Shown here: one piece after another, positions 2,283 through 43,613 of the stretch | Layout of the letters: each line of letters begins with the position of its first letter | Numbering within the stretch: the stretch's first letter is position 1 | From: Candidatus Poriferisocius sp. | Lineage (GTDB): Bacteria > Actinomycetota > Acidimicrobiia > Acidimicrobiales > Bin134 | DNA length: 64,000 bases | Reading direction: 5' to 3' | Assembly (NCBI RefSeq): GCF_965219775.1 | Contig: NZ_OZ244793.1 | Coordinates: forward strand, 724,249-788,248 | Translations under genes and position numbers: made by a program | Notes under the pieces: model-generated | Told to the model about the DNA's origin: nothing | Databases searched by the model: none | What the model saw: only the letters and a program-made list of their open reading frames with translations

Positions 2283-2864
2283 TCAATGGAGATCGCTCCA
2301 ACGCTGTCGCGCTGCTATGTGGCGCTCGTGGGTGAGTTGCTGGGAGATGAGGTTGGGGCGGACGAGAGCATCTCGAATGAGTCGAGCCACGGCTTCTGTG
2401 AAGTCCGACCACGGAGTCTCGATCGCGGTGGGTCCCTCCCGAAGAAGCTCCAGGACGGCGATCTCGGTGGCCTCCAGACCCAGGACGCGTCGTTCGATGG
2501 ACCGGCCCACGAACCGGACACTGTCAACAGGTGACGGAACCCTGCCGGGAACGGCAATCGTCTCGATGGCAGGAACCTGAGTGGTCAAGCCCAGGTAGGC
2601 GGCCGCGGTCGCGCCAGCAGGGCCTGCACCGGGCCCGGCGACTTCCATACCGACGTCAAAGGCACGGGGCAGTGGCACCCCGACGGGAGTGCGTGGCCCC
2701 TTCCAGTACAGGCCCCGGCGGACCCTGGCGACGTCCCCCTTGGCCACGAGTCGCGACAACTCGCACTCCACGGCGCGCCGCGGCCCCGCCAGGTCGGCGA
2801 TTTGGATGAAGCTGCGCACCGGTGCGTTCTCGATCCGTTCGCGGACACGCTCAGCCGTACTCAT
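2283..2864 (-). CDS. AbiEi-family (DUF6088-like) type IV antitoxin-like transcriptional regulator
   Basis: 193 aa. N-terminal wHTH-like segment ...LSRLVAKGDVARVRRGLYWKG... and AAAYLGLTTQVP, typical of AbiEi_4/DUF6088 proteins as I remember them. Confidence 0.7.
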   Translation of the reverse strand: MSTAERVRERIENAPVRSFIQIADLAGPRRAVECELSRLVAKGDVARVRRGLYWKGPRTPVGVPLPRAFDVGMEVAGPGAGPAGATAAAYLGLTTQVPAIETIAVPGRVPSPVDSVRFVGRSIERRVLGLEATEIAVLELLREGPTAIETPWSDFTEAVARLIRDALVRPNLISQQLTHERHIAARQRWSDLH

Positions 2865-2966: not shown

Positions 2967-3422
2967 TTAGGAGACGGCGATGACCCAGAAGTCTTGGGTG
3001 GTTTGGCCGGGGGTGATGTCGAACGCGGTGTCGTTGATGTAGAGCAGGTTGTCGTCGGCGTCTTCGATTCGGGCCGACACGGCGTACGTCCGTCCGGCTA
3101 CCAGGTTGCCGCTCCAGGTCAGTTCGTAGTCGAAGGGGATGGCGGTAGTGGGCACCGTCTGTCGGGTGATGGGCTCGGAGGCGACATCGGTGCGGCTCAC
3201 GTCGGCCAGGGTGACCACCACCACCGCTCCGTCAGGAAGCCGGGCTCCGGCGGGGATGATGGTGCCGTCGAGTTCACCGAGTTCCACCGTCCCCGACAAC
3301 GAGTTCGACGACGGGCTTGGAGTACCACCACCGGGGTCGACGGTGGGCCCCGGCTCGCCGGACCCACACGCCGCGGCGAACACGGCGGCAACAACCAGGA
3401 AGGCGGCGACGAGGTGCCTCAT
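2967..3422 (-). CDS. YbaY/YscW-like lipoprotein
   Basis: Internal ATG at 3420-3422 gives MRHLVAAFLVVAAVFAAACGSG, a signal peptide plus lipobox Cys. The body TLADVSRTDV...PFDYELTW...RTYAVSARIEDADDNLLYINDTAF is YbaY-like. The longer track ORF (to 3575) is an upstream extension. Confidence 0.7.
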   Translation of the reverse strand: MRHLVAAFLVVAAVFAAACGSGEPGPTVDPGGGTPSPSSNSLSGTVELGELDGTIIPAGARLPDGAVVVVTLADVSRTDVASEPITRQTVPTTAIPFDYELTWSGNLVAGRTYAVSARIEDADDNLLYINDTAFDITPGQTTQDFWVIAVS

Positions 3423-3426
3423 CGGC

Positions 3427-4605
3427 TCATGCCGGGGCGTCCGCGGACCGGGGAGCGGGCAACGGGTCACCCATGCGGGCGAAAGCGTCGGCCGCCGTGT
3501 TGCCCAGGAAGGCAGCCCGGAGGTCGTCGTCGAGGCGGTCGAGCCCCGGGCGGTACAGCTCGATGGGGTCGGCATTGCCCTCCTGGTGGGGGTAGTCCGA
3601 CGAGAACACCACCATGTCGGGCAACTCGGCCAGCACGTCGAGGGCGTCGGCGTCGCCGAAGCCGGGCAGGGGAGTGAGGCGCAGGTTGCGGTGCAACATG
3701 TCGGCCCCGCTGGTCGGCCACGGCCAGTCGCCCAGCGACGCCGACGACTGGCTCTGGCGCGACAGAGTCGTCACGTACCAGGGCAGCCATCCGGCCCGCA
3801 TCTCCTCGACGAGCACGGTGAGATCGGGAAAGCGGTGGAACACCCCGCCGAAGAGCATGCTGGCGATGAGATTCTGGGCGGCGTGCAACCGCTGGGTGTT
3901 GGCCAGACGGATGAGGCCCCCGACGCCGGCACCGTCGGGTTGGTCCCAACCGATGTCGGCCCACTCGGTGAAGTCGGCCTCGGTGTTGCCCACGTGGATG
4001 ACCACCACCATGCCGAGGTCGATGGCCGCCGCCCAGATCCGATCCCAGCGGGGATGGCCGGGCGGTCCGCCGGCCGGAACACCCCGGCGGGTGTAAAGGA
4101 AGAAGGCCCGGGCCCCACGGCTGCGGCATCGCTGCAGGTCCTCGACGGCGGCGTCGAGATCGGAGAAGTCGATGGTGGCCACCGCATGAAGTCGCCCCGA
4201 TTGGTCGGCAAGCTGTTCGGTGAGGAAGTCGTTGCACCGCCGGGCGGCCACGGGACGGTCCTCGGCCCGCAGGTAGTCGAGCTTCTGCCAATAGCCGCCG
4301 GGGTTCACCAGGCAGTGGTCGATGCCCACCCCGTCCATCCACGCCACCCGTTCGGCGGCGGTGGAGTCGTGGCGGGGATGGAGGACCACCGGACCCCCGC
4401 TGCGTTCGGCCCGGTCGAACAGCTTGGGCAGCAGCTCGGCGGGGGAGGGGAGCCGTTCCGCGGGCAGCACCTGCAGCAAATCCCCGGCGATGGCGTTGGC
4501 CAAGTGGGTGCGATTGTCGGGAATCTGATCGGCCCACGCCAGCATCGGGTCGTCGCTGGCGTTGTGCCCGGTGATCTCCCAGTGGGTGTCGACGTCGACG
4601 ATCAT
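3427..4605 (-). CDS. amidohydrolase family protein (PF04909/ACMSD-like)
   Basis: Starts MIVDVDTHWE (ATG at 4603-4605). Has a metal-binding D-x-H N-terminus and SSDYPHQEG near the C-terminus. The track ORF extends to 4719, but that part is Arg/Pro-rich shadow. Confidence 0.85.
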   Translation of the reverse strand: MIVDVDTHWEITGHNASDDPMLAWADQIPDNRTHLANAIAGDLLQVLPAERLPSPAELLPKLFDRAERSGGPVVLHPRHDSTAAERVAWMDGVGIDHCLVNPGGYWQKLDYLRAEDRPVAARRCNDFLTEQLADQSGRLHAVATIDFSDLDAAVEDLQRCRSRGARAFFLYTRRGVPAGGPPGHPRWDRIWAAAIDLGMVVVIHVGNTEADFTEWADIGWDQPDGAGVGGLIRLANTQRLHAAQNLIASMLFGGVFHRFPDLTVLVEEMRAGWLPWYVTTLSRQSQSSASLGDWPWPTSGADMLHRNLRLTPLPGFGDADALDVLAELPDMVVFSSDYPHQEGNADPIELYRPGLDRLDDDLRAAFLGNTAADAFARMGDPLPAPRSADAPA

Positions 4606-4717
4606 CTCCTCAGCGTAGTGATGTCGGTCGCCGTTGTGTCGGCGACACCGTGTACTCTCGCCGCCAGCGGCCTCGGCGGAGGCCGGTGTTGGCTCAACAC
4701 ACAAGGGAGGGACCGGC

Positions 4718-5872
4718 ATGACCGATCAGATGATGCGGGAGTTCGCGGCGGCCCTGCCGGTGCCCGAATTCGAGACCACGGCTTGGGCCCCGGCCCCGGA
4801 GTTGTCCCGGGCCACCGTGGCCGTCGTGACCAGTGCGGCCCTGCACCGCCCCGACGACGAGCCTTTCTCCGCTCGGGGCGACGCCGGCTACCGGTTGCTC
4901 GACCGGGAGGATCGCAACCTGGTACTGGGGCACTGGAGTTCCAACTTCGACCGGTCGGCGTTCCTGTTGGATCTCAACGTGGTGTACCCGGTGGACCGTC
5001 TGGAGGAGTTGGCGGCCGACGGGGTGATCGGCGAGGTGGCCCCTCGTCATGTGGCCTTCGCCGGCAACCAGCCCGACACGGTGTCGGAGGTCCGCATGGA
5101 CACCGGACCGGCGGCCGCCGCCGATCTGCGGGCCGACGGGGTGGACGTGGCCATCCTGACCCCGGTTTGACCCCTGTGCACGCGCACCGTGTGTGTGCTG
5201 GCCCACGTGTTGGAAGCAGCCGGGATCGCCACCGTGGTGCTGGCCGCCATGCGCCCGGTGGCCGAGAAGATGCGGGTGCCCCGGGCCCTGTACTGCAAGT
5301 TCCCCCTCGGGCGTCCTCTGGGGGCGCCCAACGACGCCGCCTTGCAGCACCGGGTGCTGCGGGCTGCTTTCGATCTGCTGGACGCCCCGGCGGGACCGGT
5401 GTTGGCCGATTTCCCCGAAGTGGTGGAGGCCGAGGAGACGCCCATGGCCTGTGCGCTCCCTTCCCGGTTCGACCCCGATCTGCCGGCGTCGGTGGACGAG
5501 GCCCGAGGACTGCGGGCCGCCTACGACCGGGCGGTGGCCCGTCGAGGGGTAACCGAGGTGGGCCGGGCGGTGGACGCCGACGGAGTGCCCGCCGCGCTGG
5601 CCGACCTGGAACGGGTGGCCGGCGGGGAACACTGGAAAAAGGTGTACGGGCCCCGGCTCGATACCATTGCCTTGTCCCACGACATCCGGGCCTACTACCA
5701 GGAGGCGGCGCTGGAGTTGGCCGACCGGCCTGCTCTCGGCGCCCGCCAGATGGAGACTTGGTTCTTCGACCAGACCGAAGCGGGGGCCACCCTGAGCGCC
5801 GCCCGGGCCGCGCTCACCGAACAGGGCGCCCCCGACGGCATCGTCTTCTACATGGCCCCCGCCGGTCGCTGA
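4718..5872 (+). CDS. GrdB-family (selenoprotein B-like) protein with in-frame TGA (probable Sec, codon 151) at 5168-5170
   Basis: Track ORFs 4634..5170 and 5189..5872 are in the same frame with only the TGA between them. Read-through gives ...DGVDVAILTPV-U-PLCTRTVCVLAHVLEAAGIATV. This parallels clostridial GrdB ...DGVDAVILTST-U-GTCTRCGATMVKEIERAGIPVV (from memory). ATG at 4718 is preceded by AAGGGAGG. Confidence 0.75.
5178..5198 (+). promoter_or_regulatory. SECIS-like hairpin 8 nt downstream of the in-frame TGA
   Basis: GCACGCGC-ACCGU-GUGUGUGC gives an 8-bp stem (three G-U pairs) with a 5-nt loop containing GU. Folded by eye only. Confidence 0.35.
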
Positions 5873-5961
5873 CGCATCAAGAGGACAGGCCAGCCATAGG
5901 CGCCGACGGCCCACGACTGTTCTCGCCGCGCCGCCACTGAGGGCCGCGAGCAGCCCAGGGC

Positions 5962-7167
5962 TCAGGCGGCGATGGCGTTCTTCAGCAAGGCCTCGTTGGG
6001 CTCAGCGGGAAGATCGGTGAGGGGCTCGGCGATCTCGGCATGGGTGGGGCCGTGCTGGGCGGCCAGCGGCGCCAGGGCGTCGAGGTCGAAGCCGTAGAGG
6101 TCGGCGGCGTTGCCGGCCAGAATCTGCTGCAGCTCCACCGGATCGGTGTCGCAGAACACCTGGCGCAGGTGCTCGCGGGTGTAGGGGCCGGTGCCCTCGT
6201 TGTGGGGATAGTCGGAGCCCCACATCACCTTGTCGACCCCGAGCACTTCGCGGGCAGCAGCGTCGGCGTGACCGGGCTGGCTGATGCCCACCCAGCAGTT
6301 CCGCTGGAAGTACTCGGTGGCCGAGCGGGGCAGGATGTGGCTCTCGTCGTAGCGCATCTCGCCCATGCGGCCGGTGTCGCGGATGGTGGCCAAGGTCTCA
6401 TCCATGTGGGCCAACGCCCCCACCAACCAGGCGCAGCCCTGTTCGGTCATCACGAACTTGAGCTTGGGGAACCGCTCGAACACCCCCGACAGCAGGAGCT
6501 GGTAGAAGGGCCGGTGGGAGTAGAAGCTCACCTCGTGGATGAACAGCAGGTCGGCCACCGAGTAGCGCCCGTAGTTGGGCGCCCCAGTGCCGCCGTGGCT
6601 GTTGACGATCACCCCGAGATCCTCACAGGCGGCCCAGAACGGGTCGTACACCGGGTCGTAGAGCGGGGCGAGGTCCTTGCAATCGGGCGGGATGGCCGAG
6701 ATGAGCACGCCGCCGCGCAGGTTGTTGGCGGCGATGAACTCCACGTCGGCGATGGCTTCGTCCACGTCGTTGAGGAAGGTCTGCCCGATACCGGCCCGCT
6801 GGTCGGGGTACTGGGCGCACCAGTCGGCCAGCCAGCGGTTGTGGGCCCGGATACCGGCCAGTCGGTGCTCGAGCTGGTCGTCTCGGGGCGGGCGGGCGAA
6901 AAGGATGAAGCTGGGAAAGAACGGGGGCACGGTGTTAGGGAACACCACCTCGCCCACCTGGCCGTCGGCGTACAGGTCGCCCAGGCGCCGCTCGTTGTCC
7001 CAGTTGCGCACCCGGCCGCCGTCCTGGAGGTCGCGGAACGGGTTCCGGTACTTCTCCCGCCACGCGTCGAAGTCGTCGTGGTATTTCGACTCCAGGAAGC
7101 CCCGGTAGGTCTCGTGGTTGGCCCCGGCGTGGCAGTCGGCCGAGATGATGGTGTAGCGATCGCTCAT
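5962..7167 (-). CDS. amidohydrolase family protein (PF04909-like)
   Basis: 401 aa. Starts MSDRYTIISADCHAG, with ...WGSDYPHNEG further on. Clean ORF with GC3 bias. Confidence 0.9.
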   Translation of the reverse strand: MSDRYTIISADCHAGANHETYRGFLESKYHDDFDAWREKYRNPFRDLQDGGRVRNWDNERRLGDLYADGQVGEVVFPNTVPPFFPSFILFARPPRDDQLEHRLAGIRAHNRWLADWCAQYPDQRAGIGQTFLNDVDEAIADVEFIAANNLRGGVLISAIPPDCKDLAPLYDPVYDPFWAACEDLGVIVNSHGGTGAPNYGRYSVADLLFIHEVSFYSHRPFYQLLLSGVFERFPKLKFVMTEQGCAWLVGALAHMDETLATIRDTGRMGEMRYDESHILPRSATEYFQRNCWVGISQPGHADAAAREVLGVDKVMWGSDYPHNEGTGPYTREHLRQVFCDTDPVELQQILAGNAADLYGFDLDALAPLAAQHGPTHAEIAEPLTDLPAEPNEALLKNAIAA

Positions 7168-8001: not shown

Positions 8002-8637
8002 GTGCTCAGCGATCTGCAACGAAGGGTACGCGAGATCCTGGCGGGACTGCCGGAAGCTGAGACCTTCGCTCTTGCGGGTGGTGCCGCACTCATCGTCACG
8101 GGTGTTGTCGATCGATTGACGAATGACCTCGACTACTTCACGCCCCACCCTCAAACGGTCGGGGACCTCTCCGACGCGGTTCAGGCCGCACTAAGTGACG
8201 CCGGCCTGACCGTAACGGTGATCAGGAGTAGCGAATCCTATGTCCAGTTGCAGGTCTCCACTGGCGACGAGACAACCAACATCGACCTTGCGACCGACTA
8301 TCGGATGATGGAAGCGAGGATCACGGAGGAAGGGTTCGTGCTCGTGGTCGACGAATTGGCGGCTGACAAGGTGCTTGCGCTGGAGGCCAGGGGCGCGCCC
8401 CGCGACTACATCGACTTTGCAGCTCTCTGCGACCGTTTCGGCGTGGCCGAGATGTGTGAACTCGCGGGAGGAAAGGACGTGGGGTTCGACCGGGCCCGGC
8501 TTGCCGAGAGGCTTGCGCGGTTTTTCGAGTTGCCACCGAGAGTGTTCAGGTTGGACGACAGCGATTACGAAGGACTGAGAGTGTCCATTGAGGCTGCGTT
8601 GGCCGACCTCGAAGAAGCCATCTCCCAACGAGAGTGA
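8002..8637 (+). CDS. nucleotidyltransferase, AbiEii/AbiGii toxin family
   Basis: 211 aa. NTase signature FALAGGAALIVTGVVDRLTNDLDYF (G-G-x..-D-L-D) and a later RDYIDFAAL. Confidence 0.75.
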   Translation: MLSDLQRRVREILAGLPEAETFALAGGAALIVTGVVDRLTNDLDYFTPHPQTVGDLSDAVQAALSDAGLTVTVIRSSESYVQLQVSTGDETTNIDLATDYRMMEARITEEGFVLVVDELAADKVLALEARGAPRDYIDFAALCDRFGVAEMCELAGGKDVGFDRARLAERLARFFELPPRVFRLDDSDYEGLRVSIEAALADLEEAISQRE

Positions 8638-33325: not shown

Positions 33326-34423
33326 ATGAAGGCCGCCTTGCTGGCATCCCCAGCCACACCCCTGGTGATGGCCGACGTCGACTGCATTGATCCCGGTCCC
33401 GGTCTGGTGCGGGTGCGGGTCACCCATTGCGGACTGTGCCATTCCGACTTGACCATGATCGATGCCCAGGAGAGCCTCACCCCGATCATCCTGGGCCACG
33501 AGGCCGCCGGCATCATCGACGCCGTCGGTCCGGGAGTGAGCACGCTGGCGCCGGGCGACCACGTGATGCTGTCGCCGTTCGGCCCGTGCTCGCAGTGCTA
33601 TTGGTGCGTGCGGGGGGAGCCCACCCACTGCGCGGCGGCCATGTCGATGTTCGGGGGCACCATGTCGGACGGCTCGGTGCCGTTCTCGATGGACGGCGAG
33701 CCGGTGTACCGGGGGCTGGGGGTGGCCGGCTTCGGCGAGTTGACCATCGTGGCGGCCTCCGCCGCGGTGAAGATCGACCACGACGTGCCCTTGGAGGTGG
33801 CCGCGGTGATCGGCTGCGCCATTCAGACCGGCGTGGGTGCGGTGCTCAACACCGCCCAGGTGGAAGAAGGGGCCACCGTGCTGGTCATGGGCCTCGGGGG
33901 CGTGGGCATGTCGGTGGTGCAGGGGGCCCGGCTGGCCGGGGCGGCCCGGGTTTTCGCCTCCGATCCGGTGGCCGAGCGTCGCAACGCCGCGGTGGCTTTT
34001 GGGGCCACCGACCTGCTCGACCCCACCGACATCGACGTGGTGGAGCACGTGAAGGAGGCCACCGCCGGGATCGGGGTGGACTACGCCTTCGACGCCGCCG
34101 GGGCCGGGCCGCTGGTGGAAACCGGCCTGGCCGCCAATCGCAGCGGGGGCACCACCGTCATGGTGGGGGCCCCGGCGGTCGAGCACTCGGTCACCATCAA
34201 CCCGGCGGTGCAGTTCCTGGTGGAGGGCAAGAAGCTGTTCGGCTGCCTCTACGGCGACTGCAGCTCGCAGCGGGAAGTACCCCGTCTGCTGTCCCTGTGG
34301 CAACAGGGCCGCCTCGACCTGGAACCCATGATCACCGCCCGCCGCCCCATCGCCGACATCAACGCCGCCCTCGACGACCTGAGAGCCAGCATCGGCATCC
34401 GCACCGTCCTCAACGTGAGCTGA
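33326..34423 (+). CDS. Zn-dependent alcohol dehydrogenase family protein
   Basis: 365 aa. GLCHSDL, GHEAAGIID and GLGGVG. Confidence 0.9.
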   Translation: MKAALLASPATPLVMADVDCIDPGPGLVRVRVTHCGLCHSDLTMIDAQESLTPIILGHEAAGIIDAVGPGVSTLAPGDHVMLSPFGPCSQCYWCVRGEPTHCAAAMSMFGGTMSDGSVPFSMDGEPVYRGLGVAGFGELTIVAASAAVKIDHDVPLEVAAVIGCAIQTGVGAVLNTAQVEEGATVLVMGLGGVGMSVVQGARLAGAARVFASDPVAERRNAAVAFGATDLLDPTDIDVVEHVKEATAGIGVDYAFDAAGAGPLVETGLAANRSGGTTVMVGAPAVEHSVTINPAVQFLVEGKKLFGCLYGDCSSQREVPRLLSLWQQGRLDLEPMITARRPIADINAALDDLRASIGIRTVLNVS

Positions 34424-34504
34424 ACTCCGTCTTCGGCAATGGCGGGAGCCCAGAATCAGCCTTCCGCAAGGGCCATCCAGGCCACCAGGTACACATCATA
34501 TTCA

Positions 34505-35940
34505 GCAATTTTCGGGGGGATTTCTCGATAATTCCGGAAAATTCAGGGGGTAGTTGTCACCGGGGTCGGTATACTTTCATGTATGGAGTTTGGGTCTTCA
34601 AGCGAGACAACTTTCGAGCCATCTAGCGGGGTATCTGCCGCCGGGGGGTGCTGCAATTGTGCTGAGACAAGGCCGGTGATTGCTGGTTTTGAGTTGGTGG
34701 ATTATTCGGGGTTGGGTGCGTCGGATTTGATGAAGGTGGCGTTGCAGGGTGATGTGGCCCGCCGGCAGTTGGACGGGTACCTGGCTGGGGTGTTGGGCCG
34801 GTTCGGCGACCTCGAAGGTGATGACGCCATGTTCGCGGTGTGCAAGCAGTTCGGGATCAAGGCCCACAAGGCCAACCGTCAAGCCAAGGTGGCCTCGGGG
34901 TTGCGGGCGTTGCCCGACGTGTTGGGGGCCGTCAAGGACGGGTACATCTCCATGGATCACGCCGAGATGATCTCCGCCTCCCACGCCCGGGCCCCGTTGG
35001 CCGAAGGTGAGCCTCTGGACTTGATTCTCGAGGCTATGCGCCTGGACTGCGACCAGTTCAAGAAGACCTTGGCCACCCGTGAGGACCAGCGGGCCTCGGT
35101 TGACGGGTTGTCCCGCACCGAACGCCAACGAGCCCGGCGCACGGCCAGTGTGTTCGACGGGGACGACGACATGGTCATCCTTCACGCCGAACTCGACGCC
35201 ATCGCCGGCCAACGCGTCAAGACCGCCATGGCCGCCATGAACACCCGCCTGCTCCACCACGACACCAAAGCCGGCCACGAACGCACCTACCACCAACGCA
35301 ACGCCGACGCCTTAGTGGCATTGATGACCCAACAACCCGCCGACCAGGCTGGCGGGACGGGTATGGCGGCCAACGGCTTGTCCCTACCGCCCGCAGCCGA
35401 CGAGCCAGGCCACGGTCATGCTGGCGAGCCCGTAGGCGGAACCGATTGCGGACCAGCCCCGCAGAAGACGACTTTGGTGGTCACCGCCGAATGGGACCCG
35501 ATCTACGGGGTGCTCCAAGACGCCGAACTCATCGACGGCACCCCCATCGAAATCGAAGAACTCCGCCGTCTGGCTTGTGACGCCGACATCATCCCCGCCA
35601 TCTTCGGCACCGACGGCCAACCCCTCTACCTGGGTCGCACCCAACGTGTCCCCAACCAAGCCCAACGGATGGCCCTGTTCGCGAGAGACCAACACTGCGT
35701 CGCCTGCGGCCTGGCCGCCCAGGCGTGTGAAGTCCACCACATCCTTCCGTGGGAACAAGGCGGACCCACCAACATCGACAACCTGGTCCTGCTCTGCCCC
35801 AAGTGCCACCGCCAAGCCCACCAAGACGACCACCAACACGCCTACCACAAACGACGCCGCCACAAGCCGAGACCCCCAGCCACCCACCACCAACCCCCCG
35901 ACCCGGCCAGGCCACCCGACACCGTCTCACTCTCCTGACC
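34505..35940. repeat. copy 1 of the DUF222-HNH repeat (pairs with 41207..42650; roughly 90% identity by eye, with indels)
   Basis: The alignment by eye includes the upstream leader (...GATAATTC..GAAAATTCAGGGG..GTTGTCAC.GGGGT..GTATACTTTCATGTATGGAG). Confidence 0.85.
34583..35938 (+). CDS. DUF222 domain / HNH endonuclease (REP13E12-type)
   Basis: 451 aa. C-terminal CEVHHILPWEQGGPTNIDNLVLLCPKCHRQAH is the HNH motif. The DUF222-like N-terminal body is typical of multi-copy actinobacterial genes. Confidence 0.85.
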   Translation: MEFGSSSETTFEPSSGVSAAGGCCNCAETRPVIAGFELVDYSGLGASDLMKVALQGDVARRQLDGYLAGVLGRFGDLEGDDAMFAVCKQFGIKAHKANRQAKVASGLRALPDVLGAVKDGYISMDHAEMISASHARAPLAEGEPLDLILEAMRLDCDQFKKTLATREDQRASVDGLSRTERQRARRTASVFDGDDDMVILHAELDAIAGQRVKTAMAAMNTRLLHHDTKAGHERTYHQRNADALVALMTQQPADQAGGTGMAANGLSLPPAADEPGHGHAGEPVGGTDCGPAPQKTTLVVTAEWDPIYGVLQDAELIDGTPIEIEELRRLACDADIIPAIFGTDGQPLYLGRTQRVPNQAQRMALFARDQHCVACGLAAQACEVHHILPWEQGGPTNIDNLVLLCPKCHRQAHQDDHQHAYHKRRRHKPRPPATHHQPPDPARPPDTVSLS

Positions 35941-36170
35941 CGAAGCGAACCGTCCACGTTGGCGAGACCACGGTGTGGATCCGTCCGAAGTTGTGGCGCG
36001 CCGCTAGGTAGACGTCCTGCTCTCTGCACTCGCCGGAGCGTTTGTCGATCAAGCCAACCATGCACTGGAGTCCGTTCTGCTCCAGGGATACGTCGAGGTG
36101 TACGACACGCTGACCGTTCTCCGGGGCCGGGTCCCCGACGTCACAGAATCAACGCGTAGAGCCACATACG

Positions 36171-36392
36171 TTGGCCTACTACACCGCTTTCGACCTGGAC
36201 GAGGGGTACCTCACCTTTGCCAACGGCAACGAGCCCGAGACGGGCCACGAGGTCCGCAACGTCGGAATCATGGTCTGGGCCCACGCCCTCCACCTGGAAC
36301 TGTTCCTGTCCGACCTCCTCAAGCAGGTGCAATCCTACGCCACCCGTATCCCTGCCGATGCGTCGCCCAATCTCCCCAAATTTGCTGCCTAG
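36171..36392 (+). CDS. unassigned 73-codon ORF (TTG start), possibly a gene fragment
   Basis: Strong GC3 bias (GCC TAC TAC ACC ... GAG CCC GAG ACG GGC CAC GAG GTC CGC AAC GTC) but no recognisable family and no RBS seen. Confidence 0.3.
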   Translation: MAYYTAFDLDEGYLTFANGNEPETGHEVRNVGIMVWAHALHLELFLSDLLKQVQSYATRIPADASPNLPKFAA

Positions 36393-36655
36393 AAACGGCA
36401 ACCGACGCCGATCCTCAGTGGACGCCAGCGGCGTGGACCCTGCCAACATGCCAGCACAGCAGTCGGAACCGTGGCCCCATGCAGTATCCGAGGCCTTCAA
36501 TACGACCGCGCCGACACAGAGAGCAGGGTTGTTCCTGCTCATAGAACGGATGCCGCCGCCACTGCGAGTCTGTCTCTCGGGCTCAGGCTGCCCGACCGGA
36601 AACACTGTGTGAGTTGCTGGCCATGGTTCCTGCCCAGGCGAACCCCAGGAAACAT

Positions 36656-39600
36656 TCAGTCCAGCGGGTTAGCACTTGCCATTGCGAACGCTTTGTCCGC
36701 AACCGGGATGAGCAGGTTGATGGCCTGAATTCGGCGGACGAGTAGCATGACCGACTCGCGGTAGCCTTGATCGATGCTCGTGCCGACCCGATAGGAGAGC
36801 AGCTTGGAAAGGACTGCGTACCCTCCTAGCCGGAAATTCCACACGTCGTCCGGGACATTCCGCCATCCTCCGATGTCACTCCACAGCACGGCGGTTCCAG
36901 ATCGTTGACCACCCGTCCGCCCGGAGGAACCCTTTGTGAGCGTTGCGGAACCAGAGGGAACGTCAGGCGTGCCGATCCCCCGCAACTCCTGATCGATTGA
37001 ACCGATCGTCACGCCCTCTACATCGATGTCCGGGTCGACCAGATCTGCGTAGCGGCGTCCAACGTTGGCGGCTTGTTCGAGTCCGGCTGGATCGGAGGGC
37101 AACGGCACATACGGGAAGTCTCCGGAGTCCATCTCTTGTGAGGCAAGCCATTTCGCCGAGAGACAAACTCCGGCGATCGCGTAGAAGAGCCGTTCGGCGA
37201 CTTCTTCGTCGCTACCGGGCGAGCCAGCGGCTCTGGCTGCCGCGATCCACATCGGATCGATTGCCGGCGTTCTTCCGGAGACGGAAGTGCCGCCAGCCGC
37301 TGCCAGCACGTCGGGGCGCCACAGGGGGAAGACACGGGCATCGGGATCGAACGCGTGATAGCTGGGGACCTGGCTCGCAACCACTGGCCGTGCCGCGCCT
37401 TGCCTCCGACGGGTCTGCCCGACAACCAGGGCACGCTGACCGTCGACGTTCCAGAAGGGCAGCATCTGTTTTCTGGGCTCAGTGAGGAACTTATGCTCGG
37501 TCTCCCAGTACAACCAGCGGACATCCATCGGCCGGAAAAGGAACTGCTTCAATTGGTCGGCATTGAATCCAACTCCTCTTCCGAGTAGTTTTCGTCGAAC
37601 CTCGGGAGGGTCATAACGCGCTTGCCTCTGTGCGAAATCTGGGTAGCGCGCGGCGAGGTCATCAAAGGCGATCGAGGGATCGAAGTAGTCCTTAATCCGC
37701 TGCTCTAAGCAGGCTCGGTCTTGGTCGGTCGCAACATTCCCACGTCCCGGCTGGACACCGGAAAAGAAAGACAGCCCGGCGTCATTCACTAGGAAGTACT
37801 CATCGAGGCAGGGGAACTCGCTCCCAACTCCTGAGCTGAACCGCCACTTGCAACCTAGAGTAGGTGTGACGACGGTCGAACCCCCAAAAGGTTTGTCGTG
37901 GCGCGCTGCCAGATCGGAGCGCTTCTGGTCGGCAGCTCCGCGGAGGTCTTGTACATGAACCTGTGCAGGAGTAGTTGTTCCATCGATTCTGGTTGCCGTG
38001 ACGATGGCCGTGCCTACCTGGATTCCCGGGGCGCTTTCGGTGGTGAAGATTGACTGATCTTCCGGGTGTGATCGATCGTGTACATCTCCATGCAGGTCCA
38101 CTACTTGTACCATGTCGAATGTGGACAACACTGTGCGACGCATCTCAGGGTAGGAACGTCCAGTAAGCCATTGACTATTGGTGATGAACGAAACCACCCC
38201 TCGTTCAGTCTTCACTATGCGTCCAATTGCAGCAGCCCAGAACCGGGCATACAGATCATTAAGACGGTGTTTCCGGATCCCCCAATTGGAGTACAGTGGG
38301 TCGACCCAAGGCCGAATCAGCTCCTTCTCTTCATCGCTTTCTGCAGACGAGTAGCCTTCATAGGGAGGGTTGCCAAGGATAACGATCACTGGCTCCTGCT
38401 GTTTGACTTGTCGGGCCTCTTCGAGTTCATCATCAAAGTCTGGAAACAGTGTGGTGGTCGAGATATTCTGGGTAGGATCCCAACCAGTCAGGCTGTTGGT
38501 GAGGTATACCCGAAGCCGTTCCCCTTCTTCTACTGGTGCTCCCAGATTGGCAAGCGTCTGCGACAGGGCATAGTGGCCGATGATAAACGCTGCCGGGAGG
38601 ATCTCGAATCCAATGATGCGTTTCAACGCTGCATCCTTGGCGCGGGCAGCCGCCACCGACTCTGCCTCGCCGTTTTCAACGTGGTGCTGGTAGATGAAGC
38701 GGTACACGGCTTTCAGGTAGGTGCCCGTTCCCACCGCGGGGTCAAGGACGACCACGTTTTCGTCAGCCAGCCCGCTCGCTATCCCTAGTTCATGGCGAAG
38801 TTGATAGTCACACGCAGCGACCTGGAACTCTGCGACTTCCCTCGGTGTGTACCAGACGCCCAGGCGATCGCGGAGGAGGGGGTCAAACTCCGCTAGGAAG
38901 GGCTCGTAGAAGTATTCGATCGCGCCCACCGCAAGTGCTTCGTTGAAGCGATCCCGATCGACACGGCGTAGAACACCTGCGATCGCGGCCAGTCGTGGGA
39001 AGAGGTCGCACCGGCGGATGAGTTGAGGACTGAGACTTGCATGGAGGACGTCAGCGAATAGCGGTACCTCAACTCGATACGCCGCCGACTGCCAGTCAAA
39101 CGTTGTCGGGTCGTCCTCGCTTACGACCCATCCGGCGAAGAGGCCGTAGACGAGTGTTTGGACAACCGCAGGAACAAAGAACTCGTCGTCGAGTTCGGTG
39201 CCCAGACCGGATTCGAAGAGGTCCCAGATCGGTCGCAAGAGATCCTTCGCGTCGCCAACATCGAGGATCTGGTCGCGCATCGCCACTGCATGCTCTGCAA
39301 GGTGGTGAGCGACTTGCTTTGGTTGCACTAGGGTGGCCCTTAGCGCGGTACTATACTTCAATAGAGCTGCCAGGTCATCGTCGGTTGCCGTTGGTGCTAC
39401 CGACGGATCTGTCAGATCAGCTTCATCGATAAGGGAACATTCCGACAGCACATCTCGTGAGCCTGTCGAGTCGAACTCAGCCAGGGCGAAAGTGTGGAGG
39501 TTTGTGACCATCACTCGTCCGCCTCCAAAACGCATCGCATAGGCCCTAGTCTTGGGCTCGTCCAAGATGTCCTGGATTGACCATTTCGGCGGCTTGGCCT

Positions 39601-39832
39601 CAACGGGCAGCACAAGGACGTTCGTTGGGGCCTCGATCACTACAAGGTCGGGAAAGGACCTGCTCACACTTGCTGGGTCGGTCTCGGCTCGTACTCGGGG
39701 GCTCGTCATCCCTCCAAGTCCCCTCAGCAATTGCTTCAACGCGGGGTAGTGGGACCGCTCCTTGGTGCCTACACCTGAGGCCAATGTTGCCCGCACTTCT
39801 CGCAGGTAGGTATCGATGATCGTTGTACTCAT
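36656..39832 (-). CDS. single-polypeptide restriction-modification enzyme: N-terminal PD-(D/E)xK-like nuclease + gamma-class N6-adenine DNA methyltransferase + Type-ISP-like C-terminal domain
   Basis: ATG at 39830-39832 with GGAAGGAGG upstream. FPDLVVIEAP..VLPVEAKPP gives the PD...ExK motif. VLDPAVGTGTYL is SAM motif I and ILGNPPYEGY is motif IV (NPPY). C-terminal VWNFRLGGYAVLSKLLSYR resembles the Type ISP C-terminal domain. No helicase domain. GC is visibly lower than the flanks. Confidence 0.8.
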   Translation of the reverse strand: MSTTIIDTYLREVRATLASGVGTKERSHYPALKQLLRGLGGMTSPRVRAETDPASVSRSFPDLVVIEAPTNVLVLPVEAKPPKWSIQDILDEPKTRAYAMRFGGGRVMVTNLHTFALAEFDSTGSRDVLSECSLIDEADLTDPSVAPTATDDDLAALLKYSTALRATLVQPKQVAHHLAEHAVAMRDQILDVGDAKDLLRPIWDLFESGLGTELDDEFFVPAVVQTLVYGLFAGWVVSEDDPTTFDWQSAAYRVEVPLFADVLHASLSPQLIRRCDLFPRLAAIAGVLRRVDRDRFNEALAVGAIEYFYEPFLAEFDPLLRDRLGVWYTPREVAEFQVAACDYQLRHELGIASGLADENVVVLDPAVGTGTYLKAVYRFIYQHHVENGEAESVAAARAKDAALKRIIGFEILPAAFIIGHYALSQTLANLGAPVEEGERLRVYLTNSLTGWDPTQNISTTTLFPDFDDELEEARQVKQQEPVIVILGNPPYEGYSSAESDEEKELIRPWVDPLYSNWGIRKHRLNDLYARFWAAAIGRIVKTERGVVSFITNSQWLTGRSYPEMRRTVLSTFDMVQVVDLHGDVHDRSHPEDQSIFTTESAPGIQVGTAIVTATRIDGTTTPAQVHVQDLRGAADQKRSDLAARHDKPFGGSTVVTPTLGCKWRFSSGVGSEFPCLDEYFLVNDAGLSFFSGVQPGRGNVATDQDRACLEQRIKDYFDPSIAFDDLAARYPDFAQRQARYDPPEVRRKLLGRGVGFNADQLKQFLFRPMDVRWLYWETEHKFLTEPRKQMLPFWNVDGQRALVVGQTRRRQGAARPVVASQVPSYHAFDPDARVFPLWRPDVLAAAGGTSVSGRTPAIDPMWIAAARAAGSPGSDEEVAERLFYAIAGVCLSAKWLASQEMDSGDFPYVPLPSDPAGLEQAANVGRRYADLVDPDIDVEGVTIGSIDQELRGIGTPDVPSGSATLTKGSSGRTGGQRSGTAVLWSDIGGWRNVPDDVWNFRLGGYAVLSKLLSYRVGTSIDQGYRESVMLLVRRIQAINLLIPVADKAFAMASANPLD

Positions 39833-40269
39833 GCCAACCTCCTTCCAGCCACCGGGTACGAACCAAGAGGCGGAACCGCATCGCTCGACTGCGGGCGGAC
39901 GGTGGCAGCAATTTCGGCCCTCCGGCGCATGGAGGAGTAGCAGGGGGGTGTCCCGGAATAGTTCATACAATTCAGCGTCTTACCGTGCCGACGCTTCAGC
40001 ACAGCCGATGAACCCGAGTTGCTCGTCCGGTCAATGGTCCTCCCGAAGGATATCAGTCTGAACTTCCCACCCCAGTCGTGGCCACGTTGTCCGCCGGGTC
40101 TGGGGGTGTGGGCTTGTTCGTATCCTATGGGTTGGACCATGCCGATGGCCGAGTAGAAGCGGCGATCCAGGCGATTGTCAACGGTCTTTGGGTATCGCGC
40201 GATGGCGGACAGTGGGACCGCGCGGTGGTGGCCGTTGTTGCCGCGCGGTGGGGGTTGGTGCAGGAGTGT

Positions 40270-40410
40270 GACCTCCATTCCGGAGGTGGCTTGGGTTAGG
40301 CGGCTTATGTCGCCGGTGGTGACGATGAGGTGATGGTGGTGTAGGAGTCTGTTGACAGTGGTGTTGGCGCTCATGATCCGGCGGATGGTTGTTGGGGTGG
40401 TGTCGTCGGC
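40270..40410 (-). mobile_element. remnant of an IS21-family IstB helper ATPase C-terminus
   Basis: The minus-frame translation ..DDTTPTTIRRIMSANTTVNRLLHHHHLIVTTGDISRLTQA resembles the IstB tail (..A.A..DRLLHH.h.i...G.SYRL). It begins exactly where AlkB-copy homology breaks (40406). Confidence 0.4.
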
Positions 40411-41051
40411 GGGGGGTCGTGGCGGAAGGTGATGCTGAGGCGGGGGCCGGTGGGTGTGGAGAGCTTCGGTACCGAATGTTCGAAGCAGTGTTGGCAGGTG
40501 CCGCCCATGACCAGAAGGTCACCGGAGCCGAGCACGAATCGCCTGGACTTGCCCCCACCCACAGGGCGGAGCAAGAAGGGACGGGCTGCGCCCAGTGAGA
40601 CGACAGCTATGGCCGGTTGCCTGAACGTCCGACCCACCCTGTCGGCATGCCAGGCCACGCTGTCGCGTTCATGGCGGTAGAGGTTGATGCCGACCCGGGG
40701 GAACGCCTGCCGGTAGTACGTCTCCAGTATCCCGGCCATGTCGTTGACCACGGGAACGAGCGAACCGAGCACGTCGGCGTCGAGGTGGTTGGACAGCCGG
40801 GGAACCTCCACCGTCTTGTCGTACATGGGGCGCCGCTCTGCGAACAGCGGGACTCTCGCCACCAGGGTGTCCAACAGGGTGTCGCCCCCTCGTATGAACT
40901 CGGTCATTGTGTCCACCCACGCATCGTTGCCGAGGGCCACACGAGTGACGGCAAGCTCGAGCGCAACCGGCTCCTGCAAACTCCACAAGGCAGGCTGGAC
41001 GGTGGTACCGCAGGAAGGCAAGGGCGGAGAAGCTACTGACATGGGCCGCAC
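40371..41051 (-). CDS. alkB: AlkB-like 2OG-Fe(II) dioxygenase, copy 1 (C-terminus replaced by junction sequence)
   Basis: WHAD (HxD), FEHSVP (distal His) and RLSITFR (RxxxxxR). Identical to copy 2 except one residue and the last roughly 12 aa. Confidence 0.8.
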   Translation of the reverse strand: MRPMSVASPPLPSCGTTVQPALWSLQEPVALELAVTRVALGNDAWVDTMTEFIRGGDTLLDTLVARVPLFAERRPMYDKTVEVPRLSNHLDADVLGSLVPVVNDMAGILETYYRQAFPRVGINLYRHERDSVAWHADRVGRTFRQPAIAVVSLGAARPFLLRPVGGGKSRRFVLGSGDLLVMGGTCQHCFEHSVPKLSTPTGPRLSITFRHDPPPTTPPQQPSAGS

Positions 41052-41168
41052 ACTCTACGGGCACCGGGTGACAACATTGCCGGATTGCCGAGCTAGGCCC
41101 GGCGAACGGGATGGCTCACCGTCTCTCACCTCCGCAAGCGGGTCAGTGCTCTCGGCAGTGTCATTGCC
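40406..41168. repeat. 763-bp near-identical direct repeat, copy A (pairs with 42851..43613; offset 2445 bp)
   Basis: Aligned by eye, with only a handful of mismatches. Most are in the first 60 bp, plus 41114 and 41161. Confidence 0.9.
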
Positions 41169-41206
41169 CCGCAGGGGGCGTCGAGGATGGTGATGGAAGC
41201 ATCATC

Positions 41207-42650
41207 TTTGGGGATTTCTGGGACAAATTGTCGATAATTCAGGAGAATTCAGGGGAATTGAGGGAAGTTCGGGGGGATGTTGTCACTGGGGTTAGTATAC
41301 TTTCATGTATGGAGTTTGGGTCTTCTGCCGAGACAACTTTCGAGCCATCTAGCGGGATAACTGCCGCCGGGGGGTGCTGTACGTGTGGTGGTGGCGGGCC
41401 GGTGATTGCTGGTTTTGAGTTGGTGGATTATTCGAGATTGGGTACGTCGGATTTGATGAAGGTGGCGTTGCAGGGTGATGTGGCCCGCCGTCAGTTGGAC
41501 GGGTACCTGGCGGGGGTGTTGGGCCGGTTCGGCGACCTCGAGGGTGATGATGCCATGTTCGCGGTGTGCAAGCAGTTCGGGATCAAGGCCCACAAGGCCA
41601 ACCGTCAAGCCAAGGTGGCCTCGGGGTTGCGGGCGTTGCCCGATGTGTTGGGGGCGGTCAAGGACGGGTACATCTCCATGGACCACGCCGAGATGATCTC
41701 CGCCTCCCACGCCCGAGCACCGTTGGCCGAAGGTGAACACGTTGAGTTGATCATGGAGGCCATGCGCCAGGATTGTGACCAGTTCAAGAAGACCCTGGCC
41801 ACCCGCGAGGACCAACGAGCCTCGGTCGACGGGTTGTCCCGCACCGAACGCCAACGGGCCCGCCGTACGGCCAGTGTGTTCGACGGGGACGACGACATGG
41901 TCATCCTCCACGCCGAACTCGACGCCATCGCAGGCCAACGAGTCAAGACCGCCATGGCCGCCATGAACACCCGCCTCCTCTACCACGACACCAAGGCCGG
42001 CCACGAACGCACCTACCACCAACGCAACGCCGACGCCTTGGTGGCTCTGATGACCCAACAACCCGCAGGCCAGGCCGGCGGGAAGGGTATGGCGGCCAAC
42101 GGCCTGTCCCTACCGCCCCCAGCCGACGAGCCAGATCCCGTGGGCGGAGCCGATTGCGGACCGGCGCCGCAGAAGACGACCTTGGTGGTCACCGCCGAAT
42201 GGGACCCGATCTACGGGGTGCTCCAAGACGCCGAGCTGATCGACGGGACACCCATCGAAATCGAAGAACTGCGCCGTCTGGCTTGTGACGCCGACATCAT
42301 CCCGGCCATCTTCGGAGCCGACGGCCAACCCCTCTACCTCGGCCGCACCCAGCGGGCTCCCAACCAAGCCCAACGGATGGCCCTGTTCGCCCGAGACCAG
42401 GGCTGCGTCGACTGCGGGCTGGCTGCTCAGGCCTGCGAGGTCCACCACATCCTCCCGTGGGAACAAGGCGGACCCACCAACATCGACAACCTCGTCCTGC
42501 TCTGCCCCAAATGCCACCGCCGAGCCCACCAAGACGACCACCAACACGCCTACCACAAACGACGCCGCCACAAGCCGAGACCCCCAGCCACCCACCACCA
42601 ACCCCCCGACCCGGCCAGGCCACCCGACACCGTCCCACGCTCCTGACCCA
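41207..42650. repeat. copy 2 of the DUF222-HNH repeat
   Basis: See 34505..35940. Confidence 0.85.
41309..42646 (+). CDS. DUF222 domain / HNH endonuclease, copy 2
   Basis: ATG at 41309 corresponds to the MEFGSS start of copy 1. Roughly 93% aa identity by eye. A 6-aa indel (GHGHAG) is absent here. Same HNH motif. Confidence 0.85.
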   Translation: MEFGSSAETTFEPSSGITAAGGCCTCGGGGPVIAGFELVDYSRLGTSDLMKVALQGDVARRQLDGYLAGVLGRFGDLEGDDAMFAVCKQFGIKAHKANRQAKVASGLRALPDVLGAVKDGYISMDHAEMISASHARAPLAEGEHVELIMEAMRQDCDQFKKTLATREDQRASVDGLSRTERQRARRTASVFDGDDDMVILHAELDAIAGQRVKTAMAAMNTRLLYHDTKAGHERTYHQRNADALVALMTQQPAGQAGGKGMAANGLSLPPPADEPDPVGGADCGPAPQKTTLVVTAEWDPIYGVLQDAELIDGTPIEIEELRRLACDADIIPAIFGADGQPLYLGRTQRAPNQAQRMALFARDQGCVDCGLAAQACEVHHILPWEQGGPTNIDNLVLLCPKCHRRAHQDDHQHAYHKRRRHKPRPPATHHQPPDPARPPDTVPRS

Positions 42651-42839
42651 AGACGAGCCGCCCAAGGCTCCGCCTCCCCTTAGCCCATTTCGGGGCATCC
42701 GAAGCGGTACTTGCCCCCCGTTTGGGCATGGACGGTGGTACTGAGGAACGGCCTGGCGGCGGTTCCTTGGCCAGCCATCTCTTGGGGGAGCGGTCTGTAC
42801 GCCGTGGGGAGAGGTAGAAGGGGATGGGTGTCGGGGCTT

Positions 42840-43496
42840 TCAGGCATCCTTCGGCGGGGGGTCGTGGCGGAAGGTGATGCTGAGGCGGGGGCCGGTGGGG
42901 CGGGAGAGCTTCGGGACCGAGTGTTCGAAGCAGTGTTGGCAGGTGCCGCCCATGACCAGAAGGTCACCGGAGCCGAGCACGAATCGCCTGGACTTGCCCC
43001 CACCCACAGGGCGGAGCAAGAAGGGACGGGCTGCGCCCAGTGAGACGACAGCTATGGCCGGTTGCCTGAACGTCCGACCCACCCTGTCGGCATGCCAGGC
43101 CACGCTGTCGCGTTCATGGCGGTAGAGGTTGATGCCGACCCGGGGGAACGCCTGCCGGTAGTACGTCTCCAGTATCCCGGCCATGTCGTTGACCACGGGA
43201 ACGAGCGAACCGAGCACGTCGGCGTCGAGGTGGTTGGACAGCCGGGGAACCTCCACCGTCTTGTCGTACATGGGGCGCCGCTCTGCGAACAGCGGGACTC
43301 TCGCCACCAGGGTGTCCAACAGGGTGTCGCCCCCTCGTATGAACTCGGTCATTGTGTCCACCCACGCATCGTTGCCGAGGGCCACACGAGTGACGGCAAG
43401 CTCGAGCGCAACCGGCTCCTGCAAACTCCACAAGGCAGGCTGGACGGTGGTACCGCAGGAAGGCAAGGGCGGAGAAGCTACTGACATGGGCCGCAC
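42840..43496 (-). CDS. alkB: AlkB-like 2OG-Fe(II) dioxygenase, copy 2 (apparently intact)
   Basis: 218 aa with the same motifs as copy 1. Native-looking end ..FRHDPPPKDA. Confidence 0.85.
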   Translation of the reverse strand: MRPMSVASPPLPSCGTTVQPALWSLQEPVALELAVTRVALGNDAWVDTMTEFIRGGDTLLDTLVARVPLFAERRPMYDKTVEVPRLSNHLDADVLGSLVPVVNDMAGILETYYRQAFPRVGINLYRHERDSVAWHADRVGRTFRQPAIAVVSLGAARPFLLRPVGGGKSRRFVLGSGDLLVMGGTCQHCFEHSVPKLSRPTGPRLSITFRHDPPPKDA

Positions 43497-43613
43497 ACTC
43501 TACGGGCACCGGGTGACAACATTGCCGGATTGCCGAGCTAGGCCCGGCGAACGGGATGCCTCACCGTCTCTCACCTCCGCAAGCGGGTCAGTGCTCTCGG
43601 CAGTGACATTGCC
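42851..43613. repeat. 763-bp near-identical direct repeat, copy B
   Basis: See 40406..41168. Confidence 0.9.

Follow-up and report, generated by a model that had tools for sequence, protein, structure and literature searches.

A probable PrdB-like selenoprotein gene, divided by an in-frame UGA codon, in a Candidatus Poriferisocius genome

The PrdB subunit of D-proline reductase is well established as a selenoprotein, has a UxxC motif and carries selenocysteine (Sec, U) at the position orthologous to the one considered here (PMC1088965 reference 27; PMC13188914). In the Sargasso Sea, sequences labelled "Proline reductase PrdB" ranked third in abundance among the known selenoprotein families (42 genes; Zhang, Fomenko & Gladyshev 2005, PMC1088965), and "Proline reductase PrdB" was again listed among the most abundant selenoprotein families in the Global Ocean Sampling (GOS) data (235 genes; Zhang & Gladyshev 2008, PMC2398784). 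These proteins have been among the commoner ocean selenoprotein families since 2005, yet they are without a known substrate, partner protein or solved structure. We describe here a relative from a 64,000-nucleotide (64-kb) stretch of DNA from Candidatus Poriferisocius sp., contig NZ_OZ244793.1, the whole of which is called the window below. Positions 4718-5872 (+) of the window very probably constitute one monocistronic gene for a 384-residue selenoprotein, which, within the glycine/sarcosine/betaine/D-proline reductase protein B superfamily, falls on the PrdB-like branch. One entry of the Sargasso supplement, AACY01584242, reads VVLLTPVuPLCTRTVGTLASVLEQSGLATV around its Sec and FPLGRPLG farther on (PMC1088965). 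Its identity to the window protein is 48% (E = 3e-50) over residues 144-309, a span that takes in a good part of the C-terminal extension of the latter. Because this identity runs across both the Sec motif and the extension, the subfamily can be said to have been recognised as a selenoprotein already in 2005.

Two open reading frames (ORFs), 4634..5170 and 5189..5872, lie in a common frame (5189-4634 = 555 = 3x185) and are divided by the TGA at 5168-5170. In translation, 4718-5872 (+) is one gene of 384 codons that has this TGA, codon 151, as its sole internal stop, and the read-through product is ...DGVDVAILTPV*PLCTRTVCVLAHVLEAAGIATV..., with the asterisk standing for the TGA. The G+C content at third codon positions (GC3) is of the coding type on both sides of the TGA (0.84 and 0.86). 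We take ATG 4718 rather than TTG 4634 as the start because it is preceded by the Shine-Dalgarno sequence AAGGGAGGG and because the start points of homologues match the position equivalent to 4718. Neither a Shine-Dalgarno sequence nor a purine-rich tract was seen upstream of GTG 5189. The features of the locus are listed here with the evidence for each.

4703..4711, + strand: Shine-Dalgarno sequence AAGGGAGGG, 6 nt 5' of ATG 4718 (reading of the sequence).
4718..5872, + strand: predicted PrdB-like selenoprotein coding sequence, 384 codons plus the terminal TGA 5870-5872 (tblastn matches to residues 2-384 in 80 genomes; dN/dS about 0.2).
4760..5377, + strand: PrdB/GrdB-homologous core, residues 15-220 (TIGR04483 and PF07355; 32-33% identity to genuine PrdB).
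5168..5170, + strand: in-frame TGA, codon 151, predicted Sec and the U of U-P-L-C (TGA in 81/81 sequences; column of the prdB TGA; Cys in 31/46 homologues).
5178..5202, + strand: hairpin resembling a selenocysteine insertion sequence (SECIS), with outer pairs 5178-5202 and 5179-5201, a 2x2 internal loop and the core 5182-5187/5193-5198 (RNAalifold).
5450..5869, + strand: predicted all-helical C-terminal extension, residues ~245-384, family-specific and without a PrdB counterpart (profile scans, alignment A5, AlphaFold2 model of homologue P0004).

In a scan of species-representative genomes, the related loci numbered at least 589. We analysed the best 80 of them, all from different species-level genomes; together with the window they make up the 81 aligned sequences. 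These best 80 loci match across residues 2-384 with 62-77% amino-acid identity (tblastn) and come mostly from Acidimicrobiia ('Ca. Poriferisocius', Ilumatobacteraceae and Sva0996), with a few from bins labelled Chloroflexota, Dehalococcoidia, Acidobacteria and Bifidobacterium. The TGA is found in the identical column in 81/81 sequences, and there are no other in-frame stops. By the method of Nei and Gojobori, applied against the closest clade, the nonsynonymous (dN) and synonymous (dS) substitution values are 0.165 and 0.797 before the TGA and 0.152 and 0.765 after it, which gives a dN/dS of about 0.2 on either side. Since dN and dS are alike before and after the TGA, purifying selection acts on the two halves to the same degree. 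The Pro and Leu codons right after the TGA are invariant at first and second positions, with third positions at 1.54 and 1.57 bits, and because codon-periodic variation sets in directly after the TGA, the six codons from there to GTG 5189 are evidently translated in frame. UGA terminates 29 of the 38 predicted window genes, the selenoprotein gene included (5870-5872); as UGA is thus the normal stop in the window and the genetic code is standard, any recoding must be local to 5168-5170.

If the TGA were instead a genuine stop, the locus would consist of two genes (150 aa, and 221-227 aa from GTG 5189 or later) or of a pseudogene broken by a nonsense mutation. Public gene callers do annotate a 'hypothetical protein' of 221-227 aa, UGA is the commonest stop codon of the window, and neither the window nor the 80 loci yielded any Sec machinery. 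A nonsense mutation, however, would not persist at one column of 81 sequences that are 62-77% identical. Also against a genuine stop, the six codons for PLCTRT, between the TGA and GTG 5189, are conserved as amino acids with synonymous changes at third positions, GTG 5189 lacks a Shine-Dalgarno sequence, and full-length Cys homologues and genuine PrdB are collinear across the site. We give termination at codon 151 almost no credence.

The effect of the TGA on annotation is apparent from a protein search with the read-through product, which found two classes of relatives: full-length proteins of 380-410 aa, and many fragments of 225-228 aa that begin just 3' of the TGA. The window's own called product (P0001) has 221 aa and is 100% identical. 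The expectation that automatic callers would split this gene was therefore correct, both for the window's own record and for many public records that hold just a 'hypothetical protein' of 221-227 aa. Some orthologues with the predicted Sec lie on contigs that bear the labels Chloroflexota (L043), Dehalococcoidia (L052, 2.65 Mb long), Acidobacteria (L028) and 'Bifidobacterium breve' (L055), which points to either horizontal transfer or mislabelled bins.

Genuine prdB genes for comparison were retrieved by tblastn against annotated plasmid and chromosome records. The prdB of Terrisporobacter glycolicus lies within a prdC-prdA-(small ORF)-prdB operon and reads ...EEGVDGVLLTAG*GTCHRSAVLVQRAIEEAGIPTV..., and the copies of Peptoclostridium acidaminophilum and Acetoanaerobium noterae resemble it. 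In the MAFFT alignment (A5) the window TGA shares one column with the TGAs of two annotated prdB genes, and C154, R156, E166, G169 and T172 are invariant; all three prdB copies have TGA at this site. The match to PF07355 stops at residue 148 (model position 345/347), three residues 5' of the TGA. In 46 full-length homologues the Sec column is occupied by Cys (31), Gly (12), Ala (2) or Ser (1), and C154 is invariant in all of them. The original prediction had read the two ORFs as one frame split only by TGA 5168-5170, had taken codon 151 as Sec within a conserved U-x-x-C redox motif, and had asked whether orthologues carry Cys or TGA at this column. We obtained the same coordinates and the translation that it quoted. 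Its assignment of Sec agrees with the column shared with the prdB TGA, with the TGA kept in 80/80 orthologous loci and with the Cys found in most full-length homologues, and the motif is upheld by the invariance of C154 and R156 alongside annotated prdB. Several homologues (P0011, P0012, P0015, P0018, P0030, P0056 and others of alignment A3) have Gly, Ala or Ser at the catalytic column with C154 kept; they may be redox-dead or have a different chemistry.

Another possibility is that the UGA is recoded, but as a residue other than Sec, either as Cys by a tRNA-Sec-like tRNA together with a SelB paralogue or by near-cognate read-through. tRNA systems for recoding with Cys have been described in some bacteria. 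In favour of this reading, no Sec machinery was seen in the 64 kb of the window or at the 80 loci, and many homologues function with Cys at the position in question. On the other hand, the orthologous position of characterised PrdB is Sec (PMC1088965 reference 27; PMC13188914), selenoprotein surveys have long included the subfamily, together with its SECIS elements, and recoding with Cys is rare. Moreover, a 2026 preprint reports selA, selB, selC and selD in every examined genome, namely all 84 complete genomes, of Actinomarinales, another order of Acidimicrobiia (bioRxiv 10.64898/2026.04.03.716425). Recoding with another residue is very improbable in our view, and Sec is the preferred assignment. 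ARAGORN found no tRNA genes in the 64-kb window, and so no tRNA-Sec there, and Pfam scans of essentially all sizeable ORFs of the window found no SelA, SelB or SelD domains. Motif scans for the Sec machinery were likewise negative, and the SelA, SelB and SelD proteins of E. coli, as tblastn queries, had no hit in the window or at the 80 loci.

Bacterial SECIS elements, by criteria of the bSECISearch type and in the geometry of E. coli fdhF, have a loop about 16-37 nt from the UGA with G or GU in it. A gap-free alignment of 72 distinct 70-nt segments gave, by RNAalifold, the consensus hairpin 5178-5202 listed above. Its apical loop of five bases, 5188-5192, begins 17 nt 3' of the TGA and is CGUGU in the window and CGUGA in most relatives. 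Across the 72 distinct sequences the six-pair core is 100% paired and the eight-pair structure 99.8%. The pair 5185-5195 is C-G in 63 and U-A in 9, with no mixed cases (U21 occurs only with A31), and the pair 5184-5196 is G-U in 57 and G-C in 15. The U at 5185 is a synonymous change in an Arg codon (CGC to CGU) that is seen only with a Val-to-Thr change (GUG to ACG) altering the partner base. Synonymous variation is suppressed within the hairpin, with a mean third-position entropy of 0.34 bits versus 1.35 bits outside it, the loop bases G25 and U26 are conserved in 97% and 100%, and in four of five diverse relatives the energy minimum of the single sequence is the conserved structure. The stem, the distance of its loop from the UGA (17 nt) and the GU in that loop agree with bSECISearch-type criteria and with the geometry usual for a bacterial SECIS. 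It is the comparative signal that exceeds chance, with the TGA in 81/81 sequences and the core paired in all of them that were compared.

The hairpin differs in detail from the 8-bp one, 5178-5185/5191-5198, that had been proposed downstream of the TGA. A conserved stem does exist and does start at 5178, by way of its two outer pairs, but the conserved register is shifted by 4 nt. The 8-bp register can be drawn in the window but is broken in many relatives, and it was rejected with 87.5% of cells paired and no covariation. Also rejected was the 10-bp register of minimum energy in the window, which has 86.7% of cells paired, breaks in 46/72 and 38/72 sequences at two of its pairs and shows no covariation. 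Two of the loci, L043 and L052 (both 6448-6514), have a distinct hairpin loop, GGUCU.

The curated models place the protein nearest to PrdB. Among the NCBIfam models the PrdB equivalog, TIGR04483, comes first, with 141.2 bits where the cut-off is 300 (E = 3.5e-41); it aligns residues 15-220 to model positions 12-217/238. Behind it, and likewise below their curated cut-offs, rank TIGR01918 (selenoprotein B subfamily; 59 bits against 65.45) and the models for GrdF, GrdH and GrdB, the last of which, TIGR01917, scores 49.1 bits against 602.2 (E = 3.9e-13) and is matched at positions 198-409 only, short of a full-length match of about 430 aa. PF07355 (GRDB) is the only curated threshold that the protein passes, with 37.1 bits against a gathering cut-off of 22 (E = 3e-09; residues 7-148 to model 200-345/347). 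The GrdB-family label of the original prediction is thus appropriate for the superfamily, as defined by PF07355, but the nearest characterised relative is PrdB (3.5e-41 for TIGR04483 versus 3.9e-13 for TIGR01917); of the two models that it had named for a check, PF07355 is above its gathering score and TIGR01918 falls short.

Residues ~245-384 have no Pfam or NCBIfam match. Used as the query against 1.84 billion representative proteins, this extension found 163 clusters only, and in nearly all of them it forms the C-terminus of a protein from the same PrdB-like family. The AlphaFold2 model of a Cys homologue, P0004 (54% identical; pLDDT 95.1, pTM 0.93), has an alpha/beta core followed by an all-helical domain, and a comparison of this model with PDB folds gave no match at E <= 0.001 (best E = 0.012, TM ~0.3). 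In one representative protein of 1019 aa (P0140) the extension domain is internal, at residues 702-814. A fusion may lie behind this, or else a misassembly or a gene call with read-through.

A true PrdB subunit of D-proline reductase, with PrdA and PrdC encoded elsewhere in the genome, would account for the PrdB equivalog as the best curated match, for the JGI label 'D-proline reductase (dithiol) PrdB' on homologues and for the Sec-x-x-Cys and Arg residues held in common with PrdB. The score of 141 bits is, however, far under the equivalog cut-off, and the additional C-terminal domain of 140 aa is without a counterpart in PrdB. Genuine prdB belongs to a prdC-prdA-prdB operon, whereas searches of the 64-kb window and of the 80 orthologous loci gave no PrdA homologue, and the family profile, extension included, has no similarity to PrdA. 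Across the 80 loci the gene has no conserved neighbour, and no conserved operon partner at all. The hosts, moreover, are aerobic Acidimicrobiia and not Stickland fermenters. With no PrdA nearby, an extra helical domain and aerobic hosts, a D-proline reductase is unlikely. The protein is probably not a D-proline reductase of the Stickland type but a stand-alone selenol/thiol oxidoreductase or reductive-cleavage enzyme. We lean, with some reserve, to the view that proteins made of the PrdB core and the helical domain are a stand-alone selenoenzyme family catalysing an undescribed selenol-dependent reduction. If this is true, the long-standing label 'proline reductase' in surveys of the ocean selenoproteome is a misnomer. 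The case against D-proline reductase has four parts: the equivalog cut-off is failed, PrdA is missing, there is an extra domain, and the hosts are aerobic. It seems not to have been taken up before.

For the PrdB-like selenoprotein that we propose, we infer SelB-dependent insertion of Sec along the following lines. Translation would begin at ATG 4718 behind its strong Shine-Dalgarno sequence and would not terminate at UGA 5168-5170, where the hairpin 5178-5202 (loop CGUGU, with the conserved GU) would recruit SelB with Sec-tRNA(Sec). Selenocysteine would be inserted at position 151, and translation would run on to the ordinary UGA stop at 5870-5872. The U151-P-L-C154 centre would then stand where PrdB of D-proline reductase has its catalytic Sec-x-x-Cys. 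By analogy with that enzyme, the selenol may act as a nucleophile or reductant; Cys154 may resolve it to a selenenyl-sulfide, and the re-reduction of the latter might come from a system linked to a thiol or to NAD(P)H.

A number of observations speak against this proposal. The genes selA, selB, selD and that for tRNA-Sec are absent from the 64-kb window and from ~6 kb around the 80 orthologues. Every curated PrdB/GrdB cut-off is failed by the protein, and solved structures gave no sequence match to the family. Gly, Ala or Ser at the Sec column in 15 of the 46 full-length homologues is not as predicted for a strictly essential redox residue, and the chemistry is argued from analogy. As regards the hairpin, its folding energy in this GC-rich context is no better than that of shuffles (z = 0.12, -0.26, +0.03 to -1.45), and the energy minimum of the window's own sequence is the different, 10-bp register. 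The covariation comes from a single pair and may represent one evolutionary event, the G and U of the loop double as positions 1 and 2 of a Val codon, and no Rfam family reached its gathering threshold anywhere in the window.

The neighbouring genes on both sides encode PF04909 amidohydrolases. The upstream one, 3427-4605 (-), is divergent from the selenoprotein gene and the downstream one, 5962-7167 (-), is convergent with it, so that the selenoprotein gene is monocistronic. The true start of the upstream amidohydrolase is at 4605, where relatives begin with MI(I/V)DVDTHW, and its longest ORF, to 4719, overshoots. For the selenoprotein gene itself neither a consensus sigma-70 promoter nor an intrinsic terminator was detected. 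Synteny is confined to the sponge-symbiont clade and includes formate-THF ligase, xylose isomerase, xylulokinase and amidohydrolase; we considered the conserved neighbourhood as a clue to function and rejected it, as none of these clade neighbours is universal and none shares an operon with the selenoprotein gene. In relatives L002-L022, which are sponge symbionts, the orthologue of the upstream amidohydrolase (83-86% identical) sits downstream, in convergent orientation, with xylulokinase/xylose isomerase upstream, and this different placement means that the window locus has been rearranged. Pfam scans found neither grdA nor grdE in the 64-kb window.

The GC content is ~0.70 around the selenoprotein locus. 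Two very long ORFs run across the locus in a different frame or on the opposite strand, 3139-5940 (+, 933 aa) and 4694-5914 (-, 406 aa); these are the usual spurious ORFs of high-GC DNA and fail the GC3 filter that real genes pass. Three more adjacent ORF pairs of the window that share a frame were considered, and they are simply separate genes, not TGA-split ones. An AbiEi-like antitoxin fragment, 2283-2864 (-), and an AbiEii toxin-like gene, 8002-8637 (+), lie ~5 kb apart and flank the selenoprotein locus. At the start of the window, 1-2000, the GC content is only 0.56 and there is a YaaC-like gene. The stretch 34400-43500 also has a lower GC content, 0.58-0.65 against ~0.70, and looks like a mobile or defence island. 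It carries two genes for DUF222+HNH endonucleases (34532-35938 (+) and 41072-42646 (+)), one for a 1107-aa Type ISP / Eco57I-MmeI-like restriction-modification enzyme (36656-39979 (-)) and two paralogues of PF13532 2OG-Fe(II) oxygenases (40371-41054 (-) and 42840-43499 (-)), an arrangement that suggests a duplicated module.

The find bears mainly on annotation: the source genome and dozens of public Acidimicrobiia genomes hold this gene only as a "hypothetical protein" of 221-227 aa. Because the gene is recorded as such a fragment, the catalytic half and the Sec residue are lost from the records, and because of these split records the use of selenium is under-counted in abundant sponge-associated, marine and freshwater actinobacteria. 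The conserved hairpin could seed a covariance model to correct the split gene calls.

In comparison with known systems, GrdB, GrdF and GrdH belong to the same superfamily (PF07355) and share with the window protein a UxxC centre. Their models score 49-64 bits against cut-offs of 602-800, and only the C-terminal half of GrdB is matched, at model positions ~198-410; because the match is limited to this region, the N-terminal ~200 residues of GrdB can be taken as absent from the window protein. In addition, the second Cys of the GrdB UxxCxxC motif is replaced by Thr. PrdB (TIGR04483; Clostridium/Acetoanaerobium sticklandii, Clostridioides difficile and Terrisporobacter) is closer. It is 32-33% identical over residues 1-220 and has the same Sec column, with the following Cys and Arg kept. 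However, PrdB has ~240 aa and consists of the core only, whereas the window protein has 384 aa and a helical domain of ~140 aa; the motif is UGTCHR in PrdB and UPLCTR in the window protein; and genuine prdB is part of a prdC-prdA-prdB operon, whereas prdA and prdC are not near the window gene. The marine 'PrdB' proteins of the Sargasso and GOS surveys, with UxxC as their family motif, have the same Sec motif (LLTPV-U-PLCTRTV), the FPLGRPLG block and the C-terminal extension. Those published entries are unassigned fragments without a described function or context. Unlike them, the window copy is placed in a high-GC Acidimicrobiia genome of roughly 3.4 Mb and has 75-78% identity to the copies of sponge-associated 'Candidatus Poriferisocius'.

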